A stretch of DNA of 64,000 nucleotides from an uncultured Planctomycetales bacterium (GTDB taxonomy: Bacteria > Omnitrophota > Gorgyraeia > Gygaellales > Profunditerraquicolaceae), in the NCBI GenBank assembly GCA_964545575.1, contig CAZJFL010000008.1, positions 18,171-82,170 of the forward strand. Reading direction: 5' to 3'. A model generated the notes under the pieces. That model searched no databases, was not told the DNA's origin, and worked only from the letters and a program-made list of their open reading frames with translations. The translations under genes were made by a program, and so were the position numbers. Shown here piece by piece: positions 1,952-56,939 of the stretch. Position 1 is the first letter of the stretch. Every line of letters begins with the position of its first letter.

Positions 1952-2611
1952 ATGATGAAAGTTTTACTTATATCGGTAAGCCCGCATAGGGAAAAGAGCA
2001 GTACATTTTTGTTAGCCGATGAAGTTCTGCGCGGGGTAAAAGATGAGGGCGCAGTTTGTGAGGTTTTGCACCTGGATAATTATAAGGTATTTTTCTGTAA
2101 GCACTGTGAGGCCTGTCATAGGAATATTCTGAAATGTTCATTGAAAGATGATGTTAATATGATTCTTCAGAAGATGCTTAATGCCGATGGCATAGTTTTA
2201 GCTTCACCTAACTACATAAATCAGGTGACTGCGTTGATGAAGGCGCTATTTGATCGCTCGGCTCACTTCATCCATTGTAAGCGTCTTTTGGATAAATATG
2301 TAGCAGGAGTGGTGACTTCCGGTAGCGGCCAGAATAAAGAAGTCTTGGACTATATCGCTTTCTACGGTCAGGTTTGCGGAGCGCAATATTCGGGAGGCGT
2401 TTCTGCTCTCCGGGAGTTTGGCGAGGAGAAGAAAGCCGAGGCTTTCAAATTAGGTAAAAAACTTGTGTCCGACATCAAAGATAAAAAACAGTACCCGCAG
2501 CAGATACAAACCATAGAGCAGGGAAAACAGCACTTAGCCCGAATCATTAAGCTGAGGAAGGATGATTGGCAAGAGGAATACAAATACTGGGCTGCAAAAG
2601 GTTGGCTATAG
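1952..2611 (+). CDS. Iron-sulfur flavoprotein / NADPH-dependent FMN reductase family
   Basis: Flavodoxin-like N-terminus MKVLLISVSPHREKSST. Compact Cys cluster CKHCEACHRNILKC (C-x2-C-x2-C-x5-C) typical of Isf-type flavoproteins. Confidence 0.6.
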   Translation: MMKVLLISVSPHREKSSTFLLADEVLRGVKDEGAVCEVLHLDNYKVFFCKHCEACHRNILKCSLKDDVNMILQKMLNADGIVLASPNYINQVTALMKALFDRSAHFIHCKRLLDKYVAGVVTSGSGQNKEVLDYIAFYGQVCGAQYSGGVSALREFGEEKKAEAFKLGKKLVSDIKDKKQYPQQIQTIEQGKQHLARIIKLRKDDWQEEYKYWAAKGWL

Positions 2612-2652
2612 GCGCTTTCCAATCTAATCGGGAAAGTGTGCCACTAAACAGT
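2612..2652 (+). promoter_or_regulatory. Conserved hairpin motif copy 2
   Basis: GCGCTTTCC-aaTCTAAtcg-GGAAAGTGTGCC, about 85% identical to copy 1. Lies between the flavoprotein stop and the ATG at 2662. Confidence 0.5.
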
Positions 2653-12533: not shown

Positions 12534-13520
12534 ATGCCTAAACTGCGCTATGAACTTGATCCCCATAACAGATTAGTCGCAGGATTATTCGGCATGCGCC
12601 GGGTTCAAGAGGGGCAGTTTAGGATCGGTCCGCGTAACACCCTTACCTACGATATCAAGACTCCTGTCCCGGCAGGCATCAAAGCGCCGCATCAGCTAAA
12701 ATTAAAAGGGGAATGGTCGCTCGATCACGACCATCAATTGCGTTTTACCCTGGATAAATTACAGAGAAAGACCTTCGGAGACGAACTCACTATTCAGGGC
12801 GAGATCCTCGATGTCAAAAAGAACGCGCTGCTTTTTGCGGTGACGACCCGTAATCAAAAGGGGAACTTTTCTCTTTATACGCTGGAACTTTCCGGCGCCT
12901 GGCAGGCAGATGCTAAAAACCGGCTGACTTTCAAAGTGGCTAAGGGCGGAGATAACTTTGATACGTTGGTCTTTAGCGGCGCCTGGCAGATCGACAAGAA
13001 TTATCAGATCATTTACCGCTATACTAAAGCCAACCTCATACGTAAACATAAGCGCCTGCATATGCTTGCGTTTAAGGGATACTGGGATATTGCCGATAAG
13101 GCCCGGCTTTCTTACGTTATTGATAAAAGCAGCGATTCAGTGTTTAATTTTAAGACGAGTGCTAGCATCTTCAAAGGCAATTACGTTAAATACGAATTAG
13201 GGATAGGAGTTTCCGGCAGGAAGCATCCGGTGAGGCGCTTGATTACGCTTTTCGGCAGCTGGAAGATTAAAAAAGGTGTAGGTCTGGTTTTTGAAATCGA
13301 AGCGGATAAAAAGATCCGGGCGATTGTTTTGGGTGCCGAGGCGCGGCTAGGCGAGAAGAACACGGTAACATTACGCTTAAGGAATAATCTGAATCAGGAT
13401 ATCGCGGGAAAGCTTGAATTAGCGCGGGATGTTTTTCAAGGGGAAGGCCAGGCCTTCCTGCGCTTACTTAGAGAGCGTGGCCAATTGACTATTCAGGCCG
13501 GGGCGGGATGGAAGTGGTGA
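12534..13520 (+). CDS. Hypothetical protein with internal beta-strand repeats
   Basis: Repeated units of the form L.F....G(A/S)W(Q/K)(I/A)D.K.. (LELSGAWQADAKNRLTFKV; LVFSGAWQIDKNYQIIYRY; LFGSWKIKKGVGLVFEIEAD). 17 nt downstream of the helicase. Confidence 0.4.
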   Translation: MPKLRYELDPHNRLVAGLFGMRRVQEGQFRIGPRNTLTYDIKTPVPAGIKAPHQLKLKGEWSLDHDHQLRFTLDKLQRKTFGDELTIQGEILDVKKNALLFAVTTRNQKGNFSLYTLELSGAWQADAKNRLTFKVAKGGDNFDTLVFSGAWQIDKNYQIIYRYTKANLIRKHKRLHMLAFKGYWDIADKARLSYVIDKSSDSVFNFKTSASIFKGNYVKYELGIGVSGRKHPVRRLITLFGSWKIKKGVGLVFEIEADKKIRAIVLGAEARLGEKNTVTLRLRNNLNQDIAGKLELARDVFQGEGQAFLRLLRERGQLTIQAGAGWKW

Positions 13521-17290: not shown

Positions 17291-17432
17291 TATTAATGAA
17301 ATAGAGGTAAATAAGGGAGTGGAAATTCTGGAACCGTAAGGTGTAAGATTTAACTCGCCTTGCGGTTTTTTTACAGGTTCTGCCATTATTTACTATCTAG
17401 TAAAAATTTCAAAAGGAAGGAGGTAGTAAGTA

Positions 17433-17633
17433 ATGGCAAAAGGTAAAGTAAAGTGGTTCTCGAACCAAAAAGGTTATGGGTTCATTACCCCTGAAGACGG
17501 CAAAGATGTATTCGTGCATCATACCGCGATTCAGGGCGAAGGCTATAAGTCCTTAGAGGAAGGCCAGGAAGTTGAGTTTGAAATCGAACAAGGCCCTAAG
17601 GGCGAACAGGCTACGAAAGTAGTAAAACTCTAA
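17433..17633 (+). CDS. cspA: Cold-shock protein (CspA family)
   Basis: [30 protein letters not shown] carries the RNP1/RNP2 motifs of the cold-shock domain. Confidence 0.9.
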
Positions 17634-17655
17634 CTATCTTACAGAACGCGACAAG

Positions 17656-17688
17656 AGGCCCGGTTAATTTCAACCGGGCCTTTTTCTT
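17656..17688 (+). terminator. Rho-independent terminator
   Basis: Stem AGGCCCGGTT/AACCGGGCCT with loop AATTTCA, followed by TTTTTCTTTC. Confidence 0.6.
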
Positions 17689-26772: not shown

Positions 26773-28875
26773 ATGGTGGGATTTGATCTCTTGCTGCTGG
26801 CGCCGGTGGGCTCTATCCTGGCAATTTCTTTTGCGGCCTACTTAGCTCTCTCTATCTTAAGAAAAGACCAGGGCAATGAGCGCATGCAGGAGATTGCCCG
26901 GGCAGTAAGGGTGGGGGCAAGGGCATATTTAAAAAGGCAGTACCTGGGCGTAGCTATATTTTTTATCGTAGTTTTCTTTATTTTATTAGCCTTAGCGCTA
27001 AAAAAATACCTGGTTATCTTTGTCCCCTTTGCCTTCCTGACCGGCGGCTTTTTTTCCGGCTTGTCCGGATTTATCGGGATGAGCATTGCCACCCAGTCTT
27101 CTAACCGCACCGCGGCAGCGGCAATGAAGAGTTTAAACTCCGGATTACGCGTGGCTTTTTCCAGCGGCGCAGTGATGGGCCTGACCGTGGTGGGATTAGG
27201 GCTGCTGGATTTAAGCATCTGGTATTATTTCTTGAACTGGTATTATTCCGCGCACCCTATTCTTATCGGTACGGATAAAATCACTGCGATTACTTCTACT
27301 ATGCTTTGTTTCGGCATGGGCGCTAGCTCTCAGGCATTATTTGCCAGAGTCGGCGGAGGCATCTTTACCAAAGCCGCGGACGTAGGAGCGGATTTAGTGG
27401 GTAAGGTAGAAGCCGGGATTCCCGAAGATGACCCGCGCAACCCCGCGGTGATCGCGGATAATGTCGGGGATAATGTCGGTGATGTCGCAGGCATGGGCGC
27501 CGACCTTTATGAATCTTATGTCGGCTCGATTGTAGCGACTTCTGCCTTGGGTGTGGCTGCCGGTTTAGGGGTGGCCGGCGTTACTGTGCCGATGGTGATG
27601 GCAGCGGTAGGAGTAATTGCTTCAATTATCGGCACCTTTTTTGTCAGAAGTAAAGAAGAGGCTACCCAGTCAGTTTTATTAGCGGCCCTGAGAAAAGGCG
27701 TCTTTGCTAGTTCAATACTAGTGGCTATAATTTCTTATTTTTTAGTCAGGTCTACCTTAGGCGTTCAGCACATGGGCGTCTACTGGTCGGTGCTGGCAGG
27801 ATTAGTTGCCGGCGTAATCATCGGCCTGGTGACGGAGTTTTACACCTCAAGCGGTTTTAAGCCCACACGTTCCATTGCCGACGCTTCTTTAACCGGCCCG
27901 GCTACGGTGATTATCGCAGGGATTGCCGTAGGGATGATGTCTACCGCCATACCGGTGATTGTAGTAGGTATGGCTATATTGGCGAGCTTTTTCTTATCTG
28001 GCGGAGCAGCAAATGTCAATGCCGGGCTTTACGGTATCGCCATTTCTGCGGTAGGCATGCTTTCTACCTTAGGGATAACTCTGGCTACGGATGCTTACGG
28101 GCCGGTAGCGGATAATGCCGGAGGCAATGCCCAGATGGCGAATTTACCCCCCGAGGTCAGAAAAAGGACCGATGCCCTGGATGCTTTGGGCAATACCACT
28201 GCTGCTACAGGCAAGGGTTTTGCCATTGGTTCCGCGGCATTAACCGCCCTGGCATTAATCGCTGCTTATAAGGATCAGGTCTCCTTATACGGCAAAGAAA
28301 TGAACTTAAGCCTGATGAACCCCAATGTACTGGTGGGATTATTTATCGGAGGGATGCTTCCCTTTTTCTTCTGTTCTATGACCATGCGCGCAGTAGGCCG
28401 GGCAGCAGGAAAAATTGTGGTCGAGGTGCGCCGGCAATTTAAGGAAATAGCCGGGATTATGGAGGGTAGAGCCTTGCCTGATTATGCGCGTTGCGTGACT
28501 ATCGCTACCGCAGCGGCGCAAAAAGAGATGATCGCGCCCTCACTGACGGCAATCATTGCGCCTATCGCGATAGGGCTGCTGATCGGCATTGATGCGGTGG
28601 CCGGGCTTCTCACCGGAGCTACGGTATCCGGTTTTGTCCTGGCAGTGATGATGGCTAATTCCGGCGGCGCCTGGGATAATGCCAAGAAGTATATCGAGGA
28701 GGGCCATTACGGAGGTAAAGGATCTTTTGCGCATAAGGCAGGGGTAGTCGGCGATACCGTAGGAGATCCCTTTAAAGATACCTCCGGCCCGAGCTTAAAC
28801 ATCCTGATTAAGCTGATGTCTATGGTTTCCATTGTTTTTGCCTCTTTCATCATCTCCAACACCCTCTTCAAATAA
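26773..28875 (+). CDS. hppA: Membrane-bound proton/sodium-translocating pyrophosphatase
   Basis: [22 protein letters not shown] and the multiple TM helices typical of V-type PPases. Confidence 0.9.
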
Positions 28876-28932
28876 GGGACAGTTCTTATCCTAATCGAGG
28901 GACGTTTCTTCAGTTAATCGGAGAAGTGTCCC
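28876..28932. repeat. REP-like palindromic units (GGGACRYTTCTY family), left flank of RAYT
   Basis: GGGACAGTTCTTA and GGGACGTTTCTT in one orientation, and GAGAAGTGTCCC in the opposite orientation. Confidence 0.6.
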
Positions 28933-28945
28933 TTTATAATTATAG

Positions 28946-29467
28946 TTAGAGATTCGGGACGGGGTCCAACAGTTTTGATTTTATATTTAATGATCTATAT
29001 TTCCAACTGCTCCACATATAATCGAGGGGGGAGGAAATCAAGTTCGCCCTCAGAGGGTTATATTCAATATAATTTAGGCAATTAATAAGGTACCTATCCT
29101 TCTGGATGACCGTGCTTTTAAATCTCCCTTGCCAGAGATGCCCTACCTTGGCGTATTTCTTATTGAACCAAAGTGTATAAGTTAGCGCTACGCCTTGCAT
29201 AATCTTAGCCAGATCGTTTACTTCTTTGACTTCCACAATTAAATGGATATGGTTGGGCATTATACAATAAGCATATAACTTGAAGTTGTATTTCTTTTTA
29301 TAATGTAGTAAAATCTGTAAATATCTTTCAAAGTCAACATTTTCTCGAAAGACATTTTGTTTTTGATTTCCGCGTTGAATAATATGATAGCAAATATCTG
29401 ATATAAGTAATCTTGGTCCTCTAGGCATATTAATCACCTCCATAATAATAGACGAAAATAAAGTCAT
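28946..29467 (-). mobile_element. IS200-like HuH Y1 transposase, REP-associated tyrosine transposase (RAYT) type
   Basis: HuH motif (HIHLIV), catalytic Tyr region, and the HIIQRGN/YCIMPNH motifs of Transposase_17. Flanked on both sides by inverted GGGAC-type palindromes. Confidence 0.75.
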
Positions 29468-29494
29468 TTTCTAACATAAAAAATTTTCCCCTCA

Positions 29495-29551
29495 GGGACA
29501 CTTCTCGCTTTGGCTTAAGAAACGGCCCTTGTTTGGTTCAAGAAACGTCCC
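29495..29551. repeat. REP-like palindromic units, right flank of RAYT
   Basis: GGGACACTTCTC, AAGAAACGGCCC and AAGAAACGTCCC. These are reverse complements of the left-flank units. Confidence 0.6.
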
Positions 29552-29600
29552 TAAGTTTTTGATGTTTTCTTCCGGATTTTAGTGGTATAATTAACTCGTC

Positions 29601-30209
29601 ATGGATGATTTGGAATTTGTCCAAAGATGTGTCAGAGGGGACGCGCACGCCTGGGACGAATTCATCGAGAAGTATTCCTGCCTCATCTACAACTATATCT
29701 ACAGCGTCTTAAAGATAAAAGGCGCAAAAGACCCCAATCAGGACAACCTAAACGACATCTTTCAGGAAATATTCGTCTTACTTAGAAAAGATAATTTTAA
29801 AAAACTAAGTAGTTTTAAAGCCAGGAACGGATGCTCCCTGGCCAGCTGGCTAAGGCAGGTGGTCATTAACTATAGCATAGATTACCTGCGTAAGGCAAAG
29901 CCCGCACTCTCTCTTGAAGAAGAGATAGGGGAAGACTTAACCCTCAAAGATATAATTGCTGACGACGCCGAATCCGCCCGCCAGGGCCTGCTCAGCGCAG
30001 AAAAAATCGCCGATTTAGCAGATTGCGTAGAGAAGCTGGATACGGAGGACAAATATTTTATTGAGTTGCACTTTAATCAGGGTTTAGATTTGGAAGAATT
30101 AAGGCGGGCGCTAGCGCTTTCGCGCGGAGCGGTGGATATGCGTAAAACCCGACTGATCGAACGCTTAAGGCAATGTTTTAAGAATAAAGGTTTCTGGTTA
30201 GATTTTTAA
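29601..30209 (+). CDS. ECF-type RNA polymerase sigma factor
   Basis: Sigma-70 region 2 (IFQEIFVLLRK...SWLRQVVINYSIDYLRK) and region 4 HTH (ELHFNQGLDLEELRRALALSRGAVDMRKTRLIERLRQ). Confidence 0.8.
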   Translation: MDDLEFVQRCVRGDAHAWDEFIEKYSCLIYNYIYSVLKIKGAKDPNQDNLNDIFQEIFVLLRKDNFKKLSSFKARNGCSLASWLRQVVINYSIDYLRKAKPALSLEEEIGEDLTLKDIIADDAESARQGLLSAEKIADLADCVEKLDTEDKYFIELHFNQGLDLEELRRALALSRGAVDMRKTRLIERLRQCFKNKGFWLDF

Positions 30210-30247
30210 TATCTATGCGTCTATTATATTAGGAAAGGATTAGTCCC

Positions 30248-30955
30248 ATGCAGCATAAATTGGAGAAGTTAATCAAAATCGTCTATCATAAGTATAAGGC
30301 GGATAAAAGCGATAGCGGCCAAGCCCATCCGGATGAAGAAACCATGGCCTGTTTTTGGGAGGATAAACTTACGCCGCAAGAGAGAGAAAGGCTCCTGCTG
30401 CATATCACTAGCTGCGCCACCTGTGCTGAGGCTTCTGCCCTGCAGGCAAAAATATTAGCGGCGCAAGAAGAGCGGGCCGTGCCAGAAGGATTAATTGAGG
30501 CGGTAAAAAGTGCCTGCGCAGGGAAAGAGGGATTATTCTTTTTTGATATAGTTTTAAGGCTAAAGGAGAAAGTAGTGGAAATCCTTAATACTAGCGGCGA
30601 TATTCTGGTAGGGCAGGAGCTGGTGCCTGCGCCGGTATTACGCAGCCGCCAGATAAAGGATTTTAAAGACGAAGTGCATATCTTTAAGGATTTTAGCGAC
30701 ATCAGGGTTGAGGTAAAGGTAGAAAACAAACAGGGTAAGTCTTTTAATCTTACCGTAGTCGCCAGGGAAAAACAGACTGGGGGAGTGATTAAAGACTTAA
30801 GAATCAGTCTCTATAAAGACGAATTAGAACTTGAGTCATATGTTGCTTCTTCCGGAGCGGTCACTTTTGAGCACGTCTTACTGGGGCGATATAAGGTCGA
30901 GATATCTACCTTGGAAAAGAAACTGGCTGCGGTGTTGTTAGAGATCAAAGCATAA
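30248..30955 (+). CDS. Putative soluble anti-sigma factor (ZAS-like H-x3-C-x2-C zinc motif)
   Basis: LLLHITSCATCAE shows the zinc-binding anti-sigma motif about 50 aa from the N-terminus. Located directly downstream of the ECF sigma gene. No TM helix is predicted. Confidence 0.5.
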   Translation: MQHKLEKLIKIVYHKYKADKSDSGQAHPDEETMACFWEDKLTPQERERLLLHITSCATCAEASALQAKILAAQEERAVPEGLIEAVKSACAGKEGLFFFDIVLRLKEKVVEILNTSGDILVGQELVPAPVLRSRQIKDFKDEVHIFKDFSDIRVEVKVENKQGKSFNLTVVAREKQTGGVIKDLRISLYKDELELESYVASSGAVTFEHVLLGRYKVEISTLEKKLAAVLLEIKA

Positions 30956-30959
30956 TCCT

Positions 30960-33161
30960 ATGTCACAGGACTACGAGGCCTTAGTCTTAGAGGTATCCCG
31001 GCAGGCGGATCTGCTTAAGATGGGCATTTTCAAACAGGGGGAATCCGCCCAGACGATCCGGCATTATAGCCAGTGCCGGATAACCGCTGAGGAGGTCGAT
31101 AAGCTCTGCCAGGATTCAGCCTATATTTTACATAAGGTATCCCAGAGAAGCTCTCCAGGCCATGAGCCGCTTGCGGCCTTAAAGAAAATAGGGCAGTTGC
31201 TCTGGGACCAGATGCTGACCCGCCCGGTCAAAGAGAAGCTAAAAGACGCGCCGGCTAAAGGCTTAGTTTTATCTTTAGACGAAGAGCTGATGAACATCCC
31301 CTGGGAACTCCTCTATAGCGGAGAAGATTTCTTATGCCTTAAGTTTATCCTGGGCAGGGTCCTGATTACCAAAGATGAGACCCGCCCTGTCCAATACCGC
31401 AGTCTCGCCAATACTCCCTTGAAGATGCTAGTTTTGGCAAATCCCACCAATGACTTAAAAAGCGCCTATCAGGAAGGCGTGCAGCTGAAGAATCAGTTTG
31501 ACCGGATGAGAAAACAGGTACATATCGATTTTAAATCCACTCATATCGATACCATATACACCAAGAAGATATTGCGCGATTACGATATCGTGCATTTTGC
31601 CGGGCACTGCGAATATGATCAGGATAATCCTGAAAATACCGGTTGGCTGCTTAGCGACGGGAGGCTCAGCCCCCGGGATATCCTCTCGCTGGGTGAGACG
31701 CCGCCTCTACCGAGCCTGGTATTTTCCAATGCCTGCTATTCTGCTAAATGTACTTTGGGCTCGATAGGCCTGGATTACCAGAAAAAAACCTACAGTCTTG
31801 CTGCGGCATTTTTATTTTCCGGGGTGCGGCACTATATCGGGGCTATCCGTAATATAGAAGACCCGGCAAGCCTTGTCTTTGCCAGGGAGTTCTATCTGCA
31901 ATTGATTAAAGGCGAACCGGTGGGCGAATGCCTGCGCCTGGGGAGGCTAAAATTAATCAAGGAATACGGGCCGGGTTCTCTGCATTGGGCAAATTATCTT
32001 CTTTACGGAGACCCTAGCTTCATACTCCTCCCCGGCAAAACAAAGGCGCCCGCGGCGAGAATTAAAAGAAAGAAGCTGTCTAAGAAAGTAGTGCTAACTA
32101 TCGCCTTGGTAGTAGCGGTAGTCTCGCTTGCTGTTTATCTTTGGCTCTGGCTGCCCACCCTTAACCCCAGCGCATATTCGCTTTATCTAGAGAGCCGTAA
32201 ATTATCCTTAAAAGGCAGGAACATGGAGGTAATTACAATTGCCGAGCAGATTATTGGAAAAGACGCTTTATTCTTACCGGTTTATCCGTTGCTAGCCGAT
32301 ACCTATCAGAGACTAGGCAAGCGGGACCTGGCTTTAAAATATTATTTTGACTACATTCTCTACAGTGAAAAGAAGCGCGATCAGAAAAACCTCAGCGCCG
32401 CTTATACGGGTATCGGCTGGTTTTATCAGCAGCAGGGAGAATATGCCAAGTCATTTGATTTCTATCATAAGGCGCTTGCCTTAAGTAAGGAGAATAACGA
32501 TAAACTTAACGAAGCTACGGCGCTTCGGAAGCTGGCTTTATGGTATACGGATAAAGAAGATTACGCTAAAGCGCTTGAGCTCCTGACTAAAAGTTCCGAG
32601 ATCAATCGGGAGCGGCAGCATATTTATGAGCACCGCTATAACTTAGCCTGCGATTATTTTGATATCGGGCTGGTTTTTAGCGATAGGGATGAGTTTGATA
32701 GCGCTAAAGAGTTTTACCAGAAAAGCCGGGCCGTGTTTGATAAATTAGAATTAAAGCGTGAATTAAGCGACTATTATTTTAATCTCGGAGAAATATGCCA
32801 GTACGAAAAACAGTATCAGAAAGCCCGGGATTATTATTTTAAGGGTTTAAAAATTGACCAGGTGCAGGGCAACCTGCCAAGTATCGCCAGCGATTACGAG
32901 ATGATCGGAGCGCTTTACCTGGAGATGGGTAATGAGGGCGAGGCAGAACGGTTCTTCCTGCAATCGGCCGCTACCGCCAAAACCATAGACGCGCCGCTTG
33001 AACTGGCCGCGGCTTATTACGACTTAGGCGCGCTCTATAAGCAGAAAGGCCGTAAGAACAAAGCCCGGGAATATTTCCGGCAGGCGCAAGAGATTTATCT
33101 TAAGATCAATCACCCGGCTTACACAGAGATTAAAGAAGAATTACTGGAGATGAGTAATTAA
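30960..33161 (+). CDS. CHAT domain (caspase-like protease) - TM helix - TPR repeat protein
   Basis: His/Cys dyad (HFAGHCEYD ... LVFSNACYS). One TM helix (VVLTIALVVAVVSLAVYLWLWL). At least six C-terminal TPR-like repeats (AYTGIGWFYQQQGEYAKSFDFYHKALAL...). Confidence 0.75.
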   Translation: MSQDYEALVLEVSRQADLLKMGIFKQGESAQTIRHYSQCRITAEEVDKLCQDSAYILHKVSQRSSPGHEPLAALKKIGQLLWDQMLTRPVKEKLKDAPAKGLVLSLDEELMNIPWELLYSGEDFLCLKFILGRVLITKDETRPVQYRSLANTPLKMLVLANPTNDLKSAYQEGVQLKNQFDRMRKQVHIDFKSTHIDTIYTKKILRDYDIVHFAGHCEYDQDNPENTGWLLSDGRLSPRDILSLGETPPLPSLVFSNACYSAKCTLGSIGLDYQKKTYSLAAAFLFSGVRHYIGAIRNIEDPASLVFAREFYLQLIKGEPVGECLRLGRLKLIKEYGPGSLHWANYLLYGDPSFILLPGKTKAPAARIKRKKLSKKVVLTIALVVAVVSLAVYLWLWLPTLNPSAYSLYLESRKLSLKGRNMEVITIAEQIIGKDALFLPVYPLLADTYQRLGKRDLALKYYFDYILYSEKKRDQKNLSAAYTGIGWFYQQQGEYAKSFDFYHKALALSKENNDKLNEATALRKLALWYTDKEDYAKALELLTKSSEINRERQHIYEHRYNLACDYFDIGLVFSDRDEFDSAKEFYQKSRAVFDKLELKRELSDYYFNLGEICQYEKQYQKARDYYFKGLKIDQVQGNLPSIASDYEMIGALYLEMGNEGEAERFFLQSAATAKTIDAPLELAAAYYDLGALYKQKGRKNKAREYFRQAQEIYLKINHPAYTEIKEELLEMSN

Positions 33162-55875: not shown

Positions 55876-55909
55876 GGGGACATTTCTTAAACCTTTTAAG
55901 AGTGTCCCC
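55876..55909. repeat. REP-like hairpin (GGGGACATTTCTTAA ... TTAAGAGTGTCCCC)
   Basis: Inverted GGGAC-type units of the same family as the RAYT flanks, between pilin genes. Confidence 0.55.
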
Positions 55910-56285: not shown

Positions 56286-56889
56286 AAAATCAGTTACCCT
56301 GCTGGAATTATTAATCGCCATTGTCCTGCTTTCTATCGTGACTATCGGCCTCTCCAGCATTGATTTATTCAGCCGCGGCCATGTCTTAAACTCACAGAGG
56401 CGCACTACCCTGCAGAACGAAGCTTCGCTTGCCTTGGAGCATATGACTAAACAGATTACCCGCGCCATCGGCAATACTCAGATAGATCCGGCAGTCATAC
56501 GCTATAATAATAATGACCGCGGAATCATGGTGAGGATAGACGATCATCCGTTACCCAGCGGTAACGGTCGTATAGACTCTGATGATTCCTGGGTTGCCTA
56601 CCGCCAGGAACCTCCTGCTATAACAGAAATCAGGTATTATACCAACGCAGGTAACGGACAAAACCCTAGGGGTAGTTTTGAGGTGATCGCTACCAATGTT
56701 GTAGTAAGAGATTCCTCCGGTTTTCCGGGTTTACGGTTCATCGGCAACTTTAATGCTAACCAGTTACAGGATAATTTTATTGAAGTATTGATCACCTGCC
56801 GCTGGCTGCCGGACCAGCCGGCATCGGTAGATAATCCCGAGGTTCAGTTGCATGCCCGCATCAAGATGCCCTCTGTTTCCACAAACTAG
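56269..56889 (+). CDS. Type IV pilin-like protein (minor pilin, PilW/PilV-like size)
   Basis: MKLTLKKS|VTLLELLIAIVLLSIV has E+5 but Ser at -1. Confidence 0.55.
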   Translation: MKLTLKKSVTLLELLIAIVLLSIVTIGLSSIDLFSRGHVLNSQRRTTLQNEASLALEHMTKQITRAIGNTQIDPAVIRYNNNDRGIMVRIDDHPLPSGNGRIDSDDSWVAYRQEPPAITEIRYYTNAGNGQNPRGSFEVIATNVVVRDSSGFPGLRFIGNFNANQLQDNFIEVLITCRWLPDQPASVDNPEVQLHARIKMPSVSTN

Positions 56890-56939
56890 GGACTGTCCCC
56901 GCCAAAGCTAATCCAAAGTCTAAATAAGGGGACTGTCCC
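56888..56939. repeat. Two REP-like palindromes GGGACTGTCCC
   Basis: AGGGACTGTCCCC and GGGGACTGTCCCT, 27 nt apart, between the last pilin gene and the tRNA. Confidence 0.55.

Follow-up and report, generated by a model that had tools for sequence, protein, structure and literature searches.

In Escherichia coli, the REPtron consists of a single-copy Y1 HUH gene (TnpA_REP, RayT/YafM; structure 4ER8) between inverted clusters of cognate imperfect palindromes, and these palindromes (repetitive extragenic palindromes, REPs) also lie dispersed between genes, often as inverted pairs, in REP/BIME arrays (BIME, bacterial interspersed mosaic element). In the REPIN-RAYT systems of Pseudomonas (RAYT, REP-associated tyrosine transposase), the RAYT is vertically inherited, the repeats on its flanks equal the dispersed family, doublets consist of two inverted hairpins, and orthologous sites retain their copies (Bertels and Rainey 2011, PMC3116915). 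The TIRtron with its TIRYT protein (TIR, terminal inverted repeat; Di Nocera et al. 2013, PMC3733652) corresponds to subclass 2.1 of Quentin et al. (2018, PMC6006769), in which this subclass is equated with Di Nocera's TIRYT and with Bertels' Group 1 (Bertels et al. 2017, PMC5581495). Here we describe a RAYT gene and its repeats in a 64-kb stretch of an Omnitrophota genome (contig CAZJFL010000008.1; the whole stretch is called the window below), where the gene lies between those for an H+-pyrophosphatase (hppA) and an extracytoplasmic function (ECF) sigma factor. We consider it likely that the locus is a REPtron or TIRtron, that is, a domesticated, single-locus Y1 HUH RAYT of a TIRYT-like branch, on either side of which its cognate hairpin repeat forms inverted arrays. 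Because the flank repeat is also scattered between genes in related genomes, the data support an ordinary, previously undescribed example of the known RAYT/REP kind.

It departs from the known kind in four respects: it occurs in another phylum, its protein is short, its repeats have no GTAG foot, and clear hairpin-forming dispersed repeats accompany a branch for which no REP-like structures had been found (Quentin et al., PMC6006769). A literature search returned no paper linking Omnitrophota to REPs or RAYTs. The locus extends RAYT/REP-type systems to this uncultivated phylum and shows that TIRYT-like proteins are able to have hairpin-forming, dispersed cognate repeats; it opens no new mechanism.

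The transposase and its inheritance

The window protein contains a Y1_Tnp domain (Pfam, 71 bits) and scored 79.5 bits with the NCBIfam profile REP_Tyr_transpos (NF047646; cutoff, 80 bits), which matched 19 of 19 aligned homologs (best E = 2.9e-25), whereas the NCBIfam IS200 model (NF033573) gave 28.5 bits against a cutoff of 55, and the aligned homologs behaved alike. H60, H62, W99, Q100, Y120, N124, and P125 were invariant in the 19 homologs, within the motifs NHIH (59-62), WQ, and YIEYNP (120-125), and family members include NHVH and YIELNP variants. A Y---NP tyrosine signature is that of class 2 (RAYT-like) TnpA_Y1, and Y---Q is that of IS200 (PMC6006769, Table 1). Both the HUH and the Tyr motif aligned to those of E. 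coli TnpA_REP (4ER8), the only solved relative identified by sequence (~15% identity; phmmer E = 0.006), which was also the top Protein Data Bank match of an AlphaFold (AF2) model (predicted local distance difference test score, 86; template modeling [TM] score, 0.71 over 153 aligned columns). Structures of IS200, IS608, and ISDra2 gave TM scores of 0.50 to 0.57. The view of a prior, sequence-only reading, that the protein is a RAYT rather than a conventional IS200 TnpA, is therefore supported by profiles, Tyr motif, and fold, as well as by the inverted flanks described below.

Among RAYTs, the protein resembles those of subclass 2.1, the motifs of which are NHVH or NH[YF]H, W[EQ], and YIELNP (PMC6006769, Table 1), in its own NH[IV]H, W[EQ], and YIE-x-NP motifs. 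In a tblastn search against plasmids it was 41% identical over 158 amino acids (aa) to the 234-aa Iodobacter protein WP_130108377 (NHVH/WE/YIELNP), the gene for which has GGGGTCAGAGCAAA / TTTGCTCTGACCCC inverted repeats on its two sides and represents a textbook TIRtron. Judged by motifs and this one pairwise comparison rather than by phylogeny, the window protein would be a short form of the TIRYT/subclass 2.1 branch. Unlike members of that subclass (median, 238 aa), it has 160 aa, ends ~40 aa past the Tyr motif, and is without the ~75-aa C-terminal helix-turn-helix-like extension. The sequence-only reading had placed the gene correctly but had given it 173 aa; this open reading frame (ORF; 28946..29467) is the mechanical maximum, with an over-extended N terminus. 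We prefer the 160-aa start because homologs all begin MPRGP, which matches the ATG at 29428-29426, and because GGAGGTG precedes this ATG. Close homologs are all 157 to 165 aa long, and an exact look-up of the 173-aa ORF returned no record, the 160-aa form being the version on record.

The window holds one copy only of the RAYT gene. The identical protein is present on four contigs in one shared context, the named homologs are from Omnitrophota, and the gene order CHAT-TPR protein, hypothetical protein, ECF sigma factor, RAYT, and H+-pyrophosphatase is common to four Omnitrophota lineages. Syntenic orthologs were 83% (P0007/L005, on a 314-kb contig), 83% (L066), 72 to 73% (P0022/L123, which is JBDRAV01), and 65 to 68% (P0046/L124) identical to the window protein. 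In L005, L123, and L124, respectively, identities were 82.5, 71.9, and 65.0% for the RAYT, 88, 84, and 76% for hppA, 59, 62, and 56% for the sigma factor, and 62, 59, and 44% for the CHAT protein, so that RAYT divergence falls in step with that of its neighbors. Nonsynonymous differences per site (pN) were 0.08 for the RAYT, and synonymous differences (pS) were 0.81, with synonymous sites saturated. Given the fixed locus, the divergence that tracks the neighbors, and this purifying selection, the RAYT is vertically inherited and not an active insertion sequence (IS).

An autonomous IS200-like IS, that is, a mobile tnpA gene with its own ends that is here by chance, would account for the Y1_Tnp domain, for an element of ~680 bp with structured ends, for a gene GC content below that of the surroundings (0.32 to 0.35 versus 0.40 to 0.46 for the locus in all four syntenic orthologs [window, L005, L123, and L124]; GC at third codon positions, 0.39 versus 0.52 to 0.55 in neighbors), and for homologs at other loci (L125, 59% identity) and on a few plasmids (34 among 72,556 records, each with <45% identity). 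Such an element shares with the window locus the HUH/Y1 catalytic core, hairpin-forming ends, and presumably single-strand-DNA chemistry (IS200/IS608, subclass 1.1). It is, however, largely refuted, and we regard it as very improbable: the protein fails the IS200 cutoff and carries Y---NP instead of Y---Q, the ends are inverted and not same-strand subterminal hairpins, tnpB is missing, orthologs occupy this locus in four lineages at identities as low as 65%, and the contigs with the identical protein all show one context. The gene is not to be annotated as an active IS200 transposase. Its compositional oddity persists despite long vertical residence.

Flanking hairpins and their covariation

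The RAYT is bracketed by 64-nucleotide (nt) inverted repeats (28870-28933 and 29494-29557) that are 73% complementary. Each contains three ~12-nt GGGACRYTTCT units with a 23-nt period, two of which pair into a 34-nt hairpin with a stem of 11 to 12 bp and a 10-nt loop with a conserved core, in keeping with the earlier description of 12- to 13-nt units in inverted arrangement. Matches to GGGACRYTTCTY (at most 1 mismatch) numbered 10 in the window against 1.6 expected, a count that 0 of 100 shuffles reached, and 6 of the 10 flank the RAYT (28876, 28899, 28921 [-], 29495, 29517 [-], and 29540 [-]). In gene orientation, the upstream flank reads unit and then U hairpin (GGGACGTTTCTT-type arm, CCAAAGC loop core, and arm GAGAAGTGTCCC), and the downstream flank is its mirror image, in which the D hairpin, with loop core CCGATT as read on the strand of the gene, comes first and a unit second (Table 1). 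The outer unit at 28876 has counterparts at the same position in the orthologs L005, L123, L124, L066, and L128.

The 3' arm of the hairpin is an invariant GTGTCCC, which reads GGGACAC on the opposite strand and therefore fits most of the GGGGWSAS motif of TIRYT repeats. In the family consensus, the arm GTGTCCC(C) is GGGGACAC on the other strand, and this core fits GGGGWSAS; in the window flanks the fourth G is replaced (aGGGACAC and cAGGGACAC). Inverted flanks with such a core are shared with TIRYT/subclass 2.1 loci, unlike which each window flank is made up of three short units in an array, with covarying hairpins. Since the units contain ACGTCCC, the CGTC-tagged REP superfamily (PMC3733652) was considered and rejected; its stems are 8 to 9 bp, its loops are 4 to 5 nt, the CGTC tag is unpaired, and no transposase is associated with it. 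Rfam had no family at any flank or candidate repeat site, and none of the flank hairpins was scored as a terminator in a simple scan for such structures.

Covariation was assessed in a hairpin set anchored on the invariant 7-nt arm GTGTCCC beside RAYT homologs that had been found by protein similarity, so that the 5' arm was unselected. In this set, 89.8% of hairpin cells were paired, compared with at most 64% when the partner was slid, and 40 cells were altered on both sides at stem positions 8 to 10, where U-A and C-G replace each other, with both partners changed, in 10 to 14 sequences each. At positions 6 and 7, G-U/U-G or A-U/C-G was present and A-C in no case, which shows that selection on the hairpin acts on one strand. 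Upstream and downstream of the RAYT these are opposite strands, unlike in IS200/IS608, and the D hairpin of the window has its G:T wobbles on the + strand only. Loop cores CCAAAGC (upstream) and AATCGG (downstream) were kept across lineages while stems varied (TTCT/AGAA, CCCT/AGGG, and CTTT/AAAG). The architecture of three plus three units was kept in all orthologs and was identical at the other locus of the 59% homolog L125; distant homologs (40 to 55% identity) had different 11- to 12-nt units, again two to three per side. The proposed hairpins thus stand as a covarying paired stem but are not thermodynamically notable as DNA in the window flanks (z scores, -2.9, -1.4, +0.5, and 0.0), and because whole-flank DNA folding is not distinctive, the case for structure is one of covariation and not of energy.

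Table 1. Positions of the RAYT gene, its flanking repeats, and other repeat sites in the window
Feature	Position	Strand	Remarks
RAYT/TIRYT-like Y1 HUH transposase gene	28946..29428	-	160 aa plus stop; HUH = N59-H60-I-H62; W99-Q100; catalytic Tyr Y120 in YIEYNP
Shine-Dalgarno GGAGGTG	29435..29441	-	6 nt before ATG at 29428; conserved in homologs
Promoter-like TAGAAA-17-TATTAT	29445..29473	-	Between repeats and gene; overlaps conserved GTTAGAAA ... CGTCTATT element
Outer (third) unit GGGACAGTTCTT, flank downstream of RAYT	28876..28887	+	Begins directly after hppA stop codon
D hairpin (34 nt) GGGACGTTTCTT-CAGTTAATCG-GAGAAGTGTCCC	28899..28932	+	Loop core AATCGG; covariance model R1, 53.5 bits
U hairpin (34 nt) GGGCCGTTTCTT-AAGCCAAAGC-GAGAAGTGTCCC	29495..29528	-	Loop core CCAAAGC; R1, 48.4 bits; foot mismatch GGGCC
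Outer (third) unit GGGACGTTTCTT, flank upstream of RAYT	29540..29551	-	Unit search
Dispersed hairpin relative GGGACATTTCTTAAACCTTTTAAGA-GTGTCCC	55877..55908	+	R1, 22.5 bits, E = 0.006; between two pilin-like genes
Two exact 11-nt GGGACTGTCCC palindromes	56889..56939	.	40 nt apart; CCAAAG-bearing spacer; covariance model E ~2
Possibly decayed copy GGCGCTTTCCAATCTAATCGGGAAAGTGTGCC	2611..2642	+	R1, 15.4 bits, E = 0.2; directly after stop codon of FMN-reductase-like gene

Dispersed copies in related genomes and in the window

Species-representative genomes were scanned with the pattern GGGACRYTTCT-N8-16-AGAARYGTCCC, which yielded at least 116 blocks, per-genome counts being lower bounds; many blocks were from Omnitrophota, and a RAYT homolog was present in 3 of 116 among the matches listed. 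A covariance model of the hairpin family (R1), built from the family alignments and searched in the window and in related metagenome-assembled genomes (MAGs), gave minimum hairpin counts of 14 for JAQUOV01, 10 for JBDRAV01 (which has the 72 to 73% syntenic ortholog), and 6 for JBAZOE01. Among the matches listed, 28 of 35 dispersed hairpins lay outside ORFs of at least 150 aa (P ~2e-17), although such ORFs make up 85% of bases. The closest available relatives, L005, DeMMO4_14, and JBDRAV01, all carry hairpins away from the RAYT; in the 20 kb of L005, for example, hairpins occur once as a doublet (12768-12841) and once singly (912-954). Moreover, the repeat variant of the RAYT flanks was also that of the dispersed copies in the same genome, with AC-type arms in JBDRAV01, a GGATYC loop in nzgw296, and an unusual GTTCGG loop in DeMMO4_14. 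Flank repeats that equal the dispersed family, in doublets of two inverted hairpins beside a vertically inherited RAYT, are features shared with the Pseudomonas REPIN-RAYT systems; unlike in these, the RAYT is of a different group, doublet spacers are not conserved in sequence, and abundance is much lower. Dispersal between genes, often as inverted pairs, likewise recalls E. coli REP/BIMEs, with the difference that the copies observed so far number tens and not hundreds.

Many dispersed copies are RAYT-less doublets in which a U and then a D hairpin, with a spacer between them, have a unit on either outer side; this is the order of the gene's flanks with 5 to 7 or ~24 nt in the gene's place. 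The clearest RAYT-less derivative, resembling a miniature inverted-repeat transposable element, was found in Omnitrophica UBA1562 (L021, 2560-2700), where the complete architecture of three plus three units surrounds a 24-nt spacer and no gene. A RAYT deletion at the native locus was ruled out for L021, since it does not lie at the hppA/sigma locus, and it is therefore a dispersed RAYT-less copy. In doublets of JBDRAV01 (L012, L030, L044, L115, and L118), arms, loop cores, and the 24-nt spacer length are kept and the spacer sequences are unrelated, which is unusual for copies of a transposing unit. Doublets also occur at orthologous intergenic sites across Omnitrophota MAGs (L081 versus L100, L038 versus L117, and L071 versus L102), and one of these sites is occupied, in the more distantly related L116, by a different hairpin, which is AT-rich and stands on the same GGGAC...GTCCC foot. 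Eight blocks of other Omnitrophota MAGs (L011, L022, L046, L087, L104, L113, L116, and L121) contain long perfect hairpins of the form GGGGACGYTTCT-(AT-rich palindrome)-AGAAACGTCCCC, in many cases with T runs behind them; these structures are terminator-like and share the foot.

These data bear on whether the hairpins are selected host elements (terminators, mRNA 3'-end stabilizers, or protein-binding sites) that the Y1 protein no longer moves, the protein being either a fossil retained for some different single-strand-DNA task or simply linked to them. Doublets that keep arms and loop cores around spacers constant in length and unrelated in sequence, their presence at orthologous sites in different genomes (L081/L100 and L038/L117), the many copies that abut stop codons, and the presence in other Omnitrophota (L011, L046, and L113) of long AT-rich hairpins that have this foot and precede T runs would all fit such a role, and G:U-compatible changes at positions 6 and 7 would suit an RNA hairpin too. 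Yet each RAYT's flank variant matches the dispersed variant of its genome, which calls for a continuing link between RAYT and hairpins; the architecture of three plus three units travels with the gene even to another locus (L125); the favored strand of the U hairpin is untranscribed from any neighboring window gene, since the sigma gene is divergent; and the catalytic residues do not vary and are kept by purifying selection. As a replacement for a RAYT/REP system we therefore consider host elements unlikely. The two are nevertheless compatible, and a host role of the hairpins as 3'-end or terminator-like structures is a serious complementary reading of a REPtron or TIRtron, in view of the unshared spacers, the doublets at orthologous sites, and the weak DNA folding. 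The 34-nt hairpins and doublets are likely to be contig breakpoints and 3'-end structures in Omnitrophota MAGs.

In the 64-kb window itself, one convincing extra hairpin and two 11-nt relics were found. The former (55877-55908), which folds as DNA with -12 to -13 kcal/mol (z score, -5 to -6), is the copy that the sequence-only reading had located at 55876-55909 between the pilin-like genes; it is real but a weaker relative of the flank hairpins. What had been read as another copy at 56888-56939 proved not to be a full one: it comprises only two palindromes, which start at 56889 and 56929, and its place before a tRNA was confirmed, between a pilin-like gene and tRNA-Ala, 67 nt before the latter. 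The GGGACTGTCCC palindromes resemble only the outer third unit of the RAYT flanks (AGAACTGTCCC; GGACCTGTCCC in orthologs) and are probably relics or solo outer units of the hairpin family. The two proposed extra copies thus become one relative and one pair of relics. Matches to GGGACAGT numbered 5 in the window against 0.67 expected, three of them at 55877, 56889, and 56929; the other two (43547 and 54801) were dismissed, as they lie inside coding sequence without a partner arm.

Such sparse copies would also be expected if, in the window's genome, the repeats were only the terminal inverted repeats of a TIRtron, without a dispersed family, and the other sites were unrelated palindromes. A single further covariance match below an E value of 0.01 in 64 kb, with 56889 and 56929 at an E value of ~2, fits this, and many TIRYT genes have been reported without a repeat family (Di Nocera et al., PMC3733652). 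We nonetheless hold this to be extremely improbable, given the exact 12-mer at 55877 (expectation, ~0.06) with its GTGTCCC partner arm, the excess of GGGACAGT at the candidate sites, and the copies away from the gene in the closest relatives. The occurrence of one convincing non-flank hairpin in 64 kb means that copy number may be low in the window's own genome, for which dispersal is suggested by these sequence matches; low copy number and moderately abundant repeat families have also been described for some TIRs (Di Nocera et al.). The genome-wide REP family that had been proposed is accordingly borne out as a dispersed, extragenic family in related Omnitrophota genomes, including that of a syntenic ortholog, but has one good extra copy in the window.

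Apart from Omnitrophota, unrelated taxa have their own multicopy hairpin families on GGGACRYTTCT...AGAARYGTCCC arms, with no RAYT homolog within the examined blocks. Such families were seen in Pseudoflavonifractor phocaeensis (L019, L041, L051, L062, L065, L079, L095, and L111), in Magasanikiibacteriota B4_bin.18 (L033, L036, L053, L057, L060, L070, L093, and L120), and in Tepidisphaerales (L037, L039, and L086).

Proposed mode of action and neighboring sequences

By analogy with E. coli TnpA_REP and IS608 TnpA, which serve as mechanistic models (PMC3479197; PMC6006769), the RAYT protein would bind the hairpins as single-stranded DNA, the bound strand being the one that allows G:T wobbles at positions 6 and 7 and hence opposite strands on either side of the gene. 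Cleavage beside the foot could then proceed via a 5'-phosphotyrosine intermediate at Y120, and hairpin units might thereby be copied, excised, or maintained in trans while the RAYT gene itself stays put. It is from these models that we infer mobilization of the hairpins by the RAYT. The dispersed hairpins would probably also act as host 3'-end or terminator-like structures.

Several observations weigh against the REPtron or TIRtron reading. The RAYT profile score was 0.5 bits under the curated cutoff, the gene is AT-rich relative to its neighbors, and the canonical GT[AG]G foot, a 5' tetranucleotide of subclasses 2.2, 2.4, 2.5, 2.7, and 2.8 (PMC6006769), is absent from the flank units, which begin (A)GGGAC and end GTCCC(C/T). 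The flank hairpins are weak as DNA folds, one foot pair of the U hairpin is broken (GGGCC), and non-flank hairpins are scarce in the window. Doublets within one genome share arms and not spacer sequence, and full copies that are identical were not encountered, so that nothing points to recent transposition; selection on the hairpins for a host function would account for this equally well. The persistence of doublets at orthologous sites in different genomes likewise speaks against recent activity.

With the single-copy gene between inverted clusters of cognate palindromes and the predicted fold closest to that of 4ER8, the locus is nevertheless like the E. coli REPtron, from which it differs in protein sequence, in the missing GTAG foot, and in its hairpin (11- to 12-bp stem and 10-nt loop with a conserved core). 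From TIRYT/subclass 2.1 loci it is set apart by the RAYT-less doublets dispersed in related genomes and by its host phylum. A wider reading, which we regard as rather doubtful, is that a short, 160-aa offshoot of TIRYT/subclass 2.1 runs a bona fide REP/REPIN-like system across Omnitrophota, in which the gene would be long fixed, the hairpins would combine an invariant GTGTCCC arm with conserved loop cores and strand-specific G:T tolerance, and the arms of dispersed copies would be kept as the spacers, constant in length, drift freely. Were this so, TIRtrons and REPtrons would be connected in mechanism, with the suggestion that the maintained unit is the individual hairpin at fixed spacing (through RAYT-dependent conversion or host selection) and not a transposing doublet. 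The locus offers a clean natural series, one site represented in four lineages, along which the flank repeats and the dispersed ones change in concert.

The promoter-like sequence and the Shine-Dalgarno sequence both lie inside the RAYT element. Comparison of homolog loci (L005, L123-L125, and L128-L160) revealed an upstream arrangement, GTTAGAAA-N14/15-CGTCTATT-N8-GGAGGTGA-N5-ATG (window 29445-29490, -), that is conserved in homologs of 45 to 100% identity at different genomic sites. This element is promoter-like, yet its CGTC is kept more strongly than a -10 box requires, and it may be an operator or autoregulatory site of the RAYT gene. On the other side of the upstream flank (window 29601-33161, +) lie genes for the ECF-type sigma factor, a 235-aa protein with a CxxC N terminus, which is possibly an anti-sigma factor, and a 733-aa CHAT-TPR protein; this cluster adjoins the RAYT in all syntenic relatives. 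Elsewhere in the window, at 17313-17685 (+), Rfam gave a borderline match to the cspA thermoregulator (80 bits; gathering score, 78).

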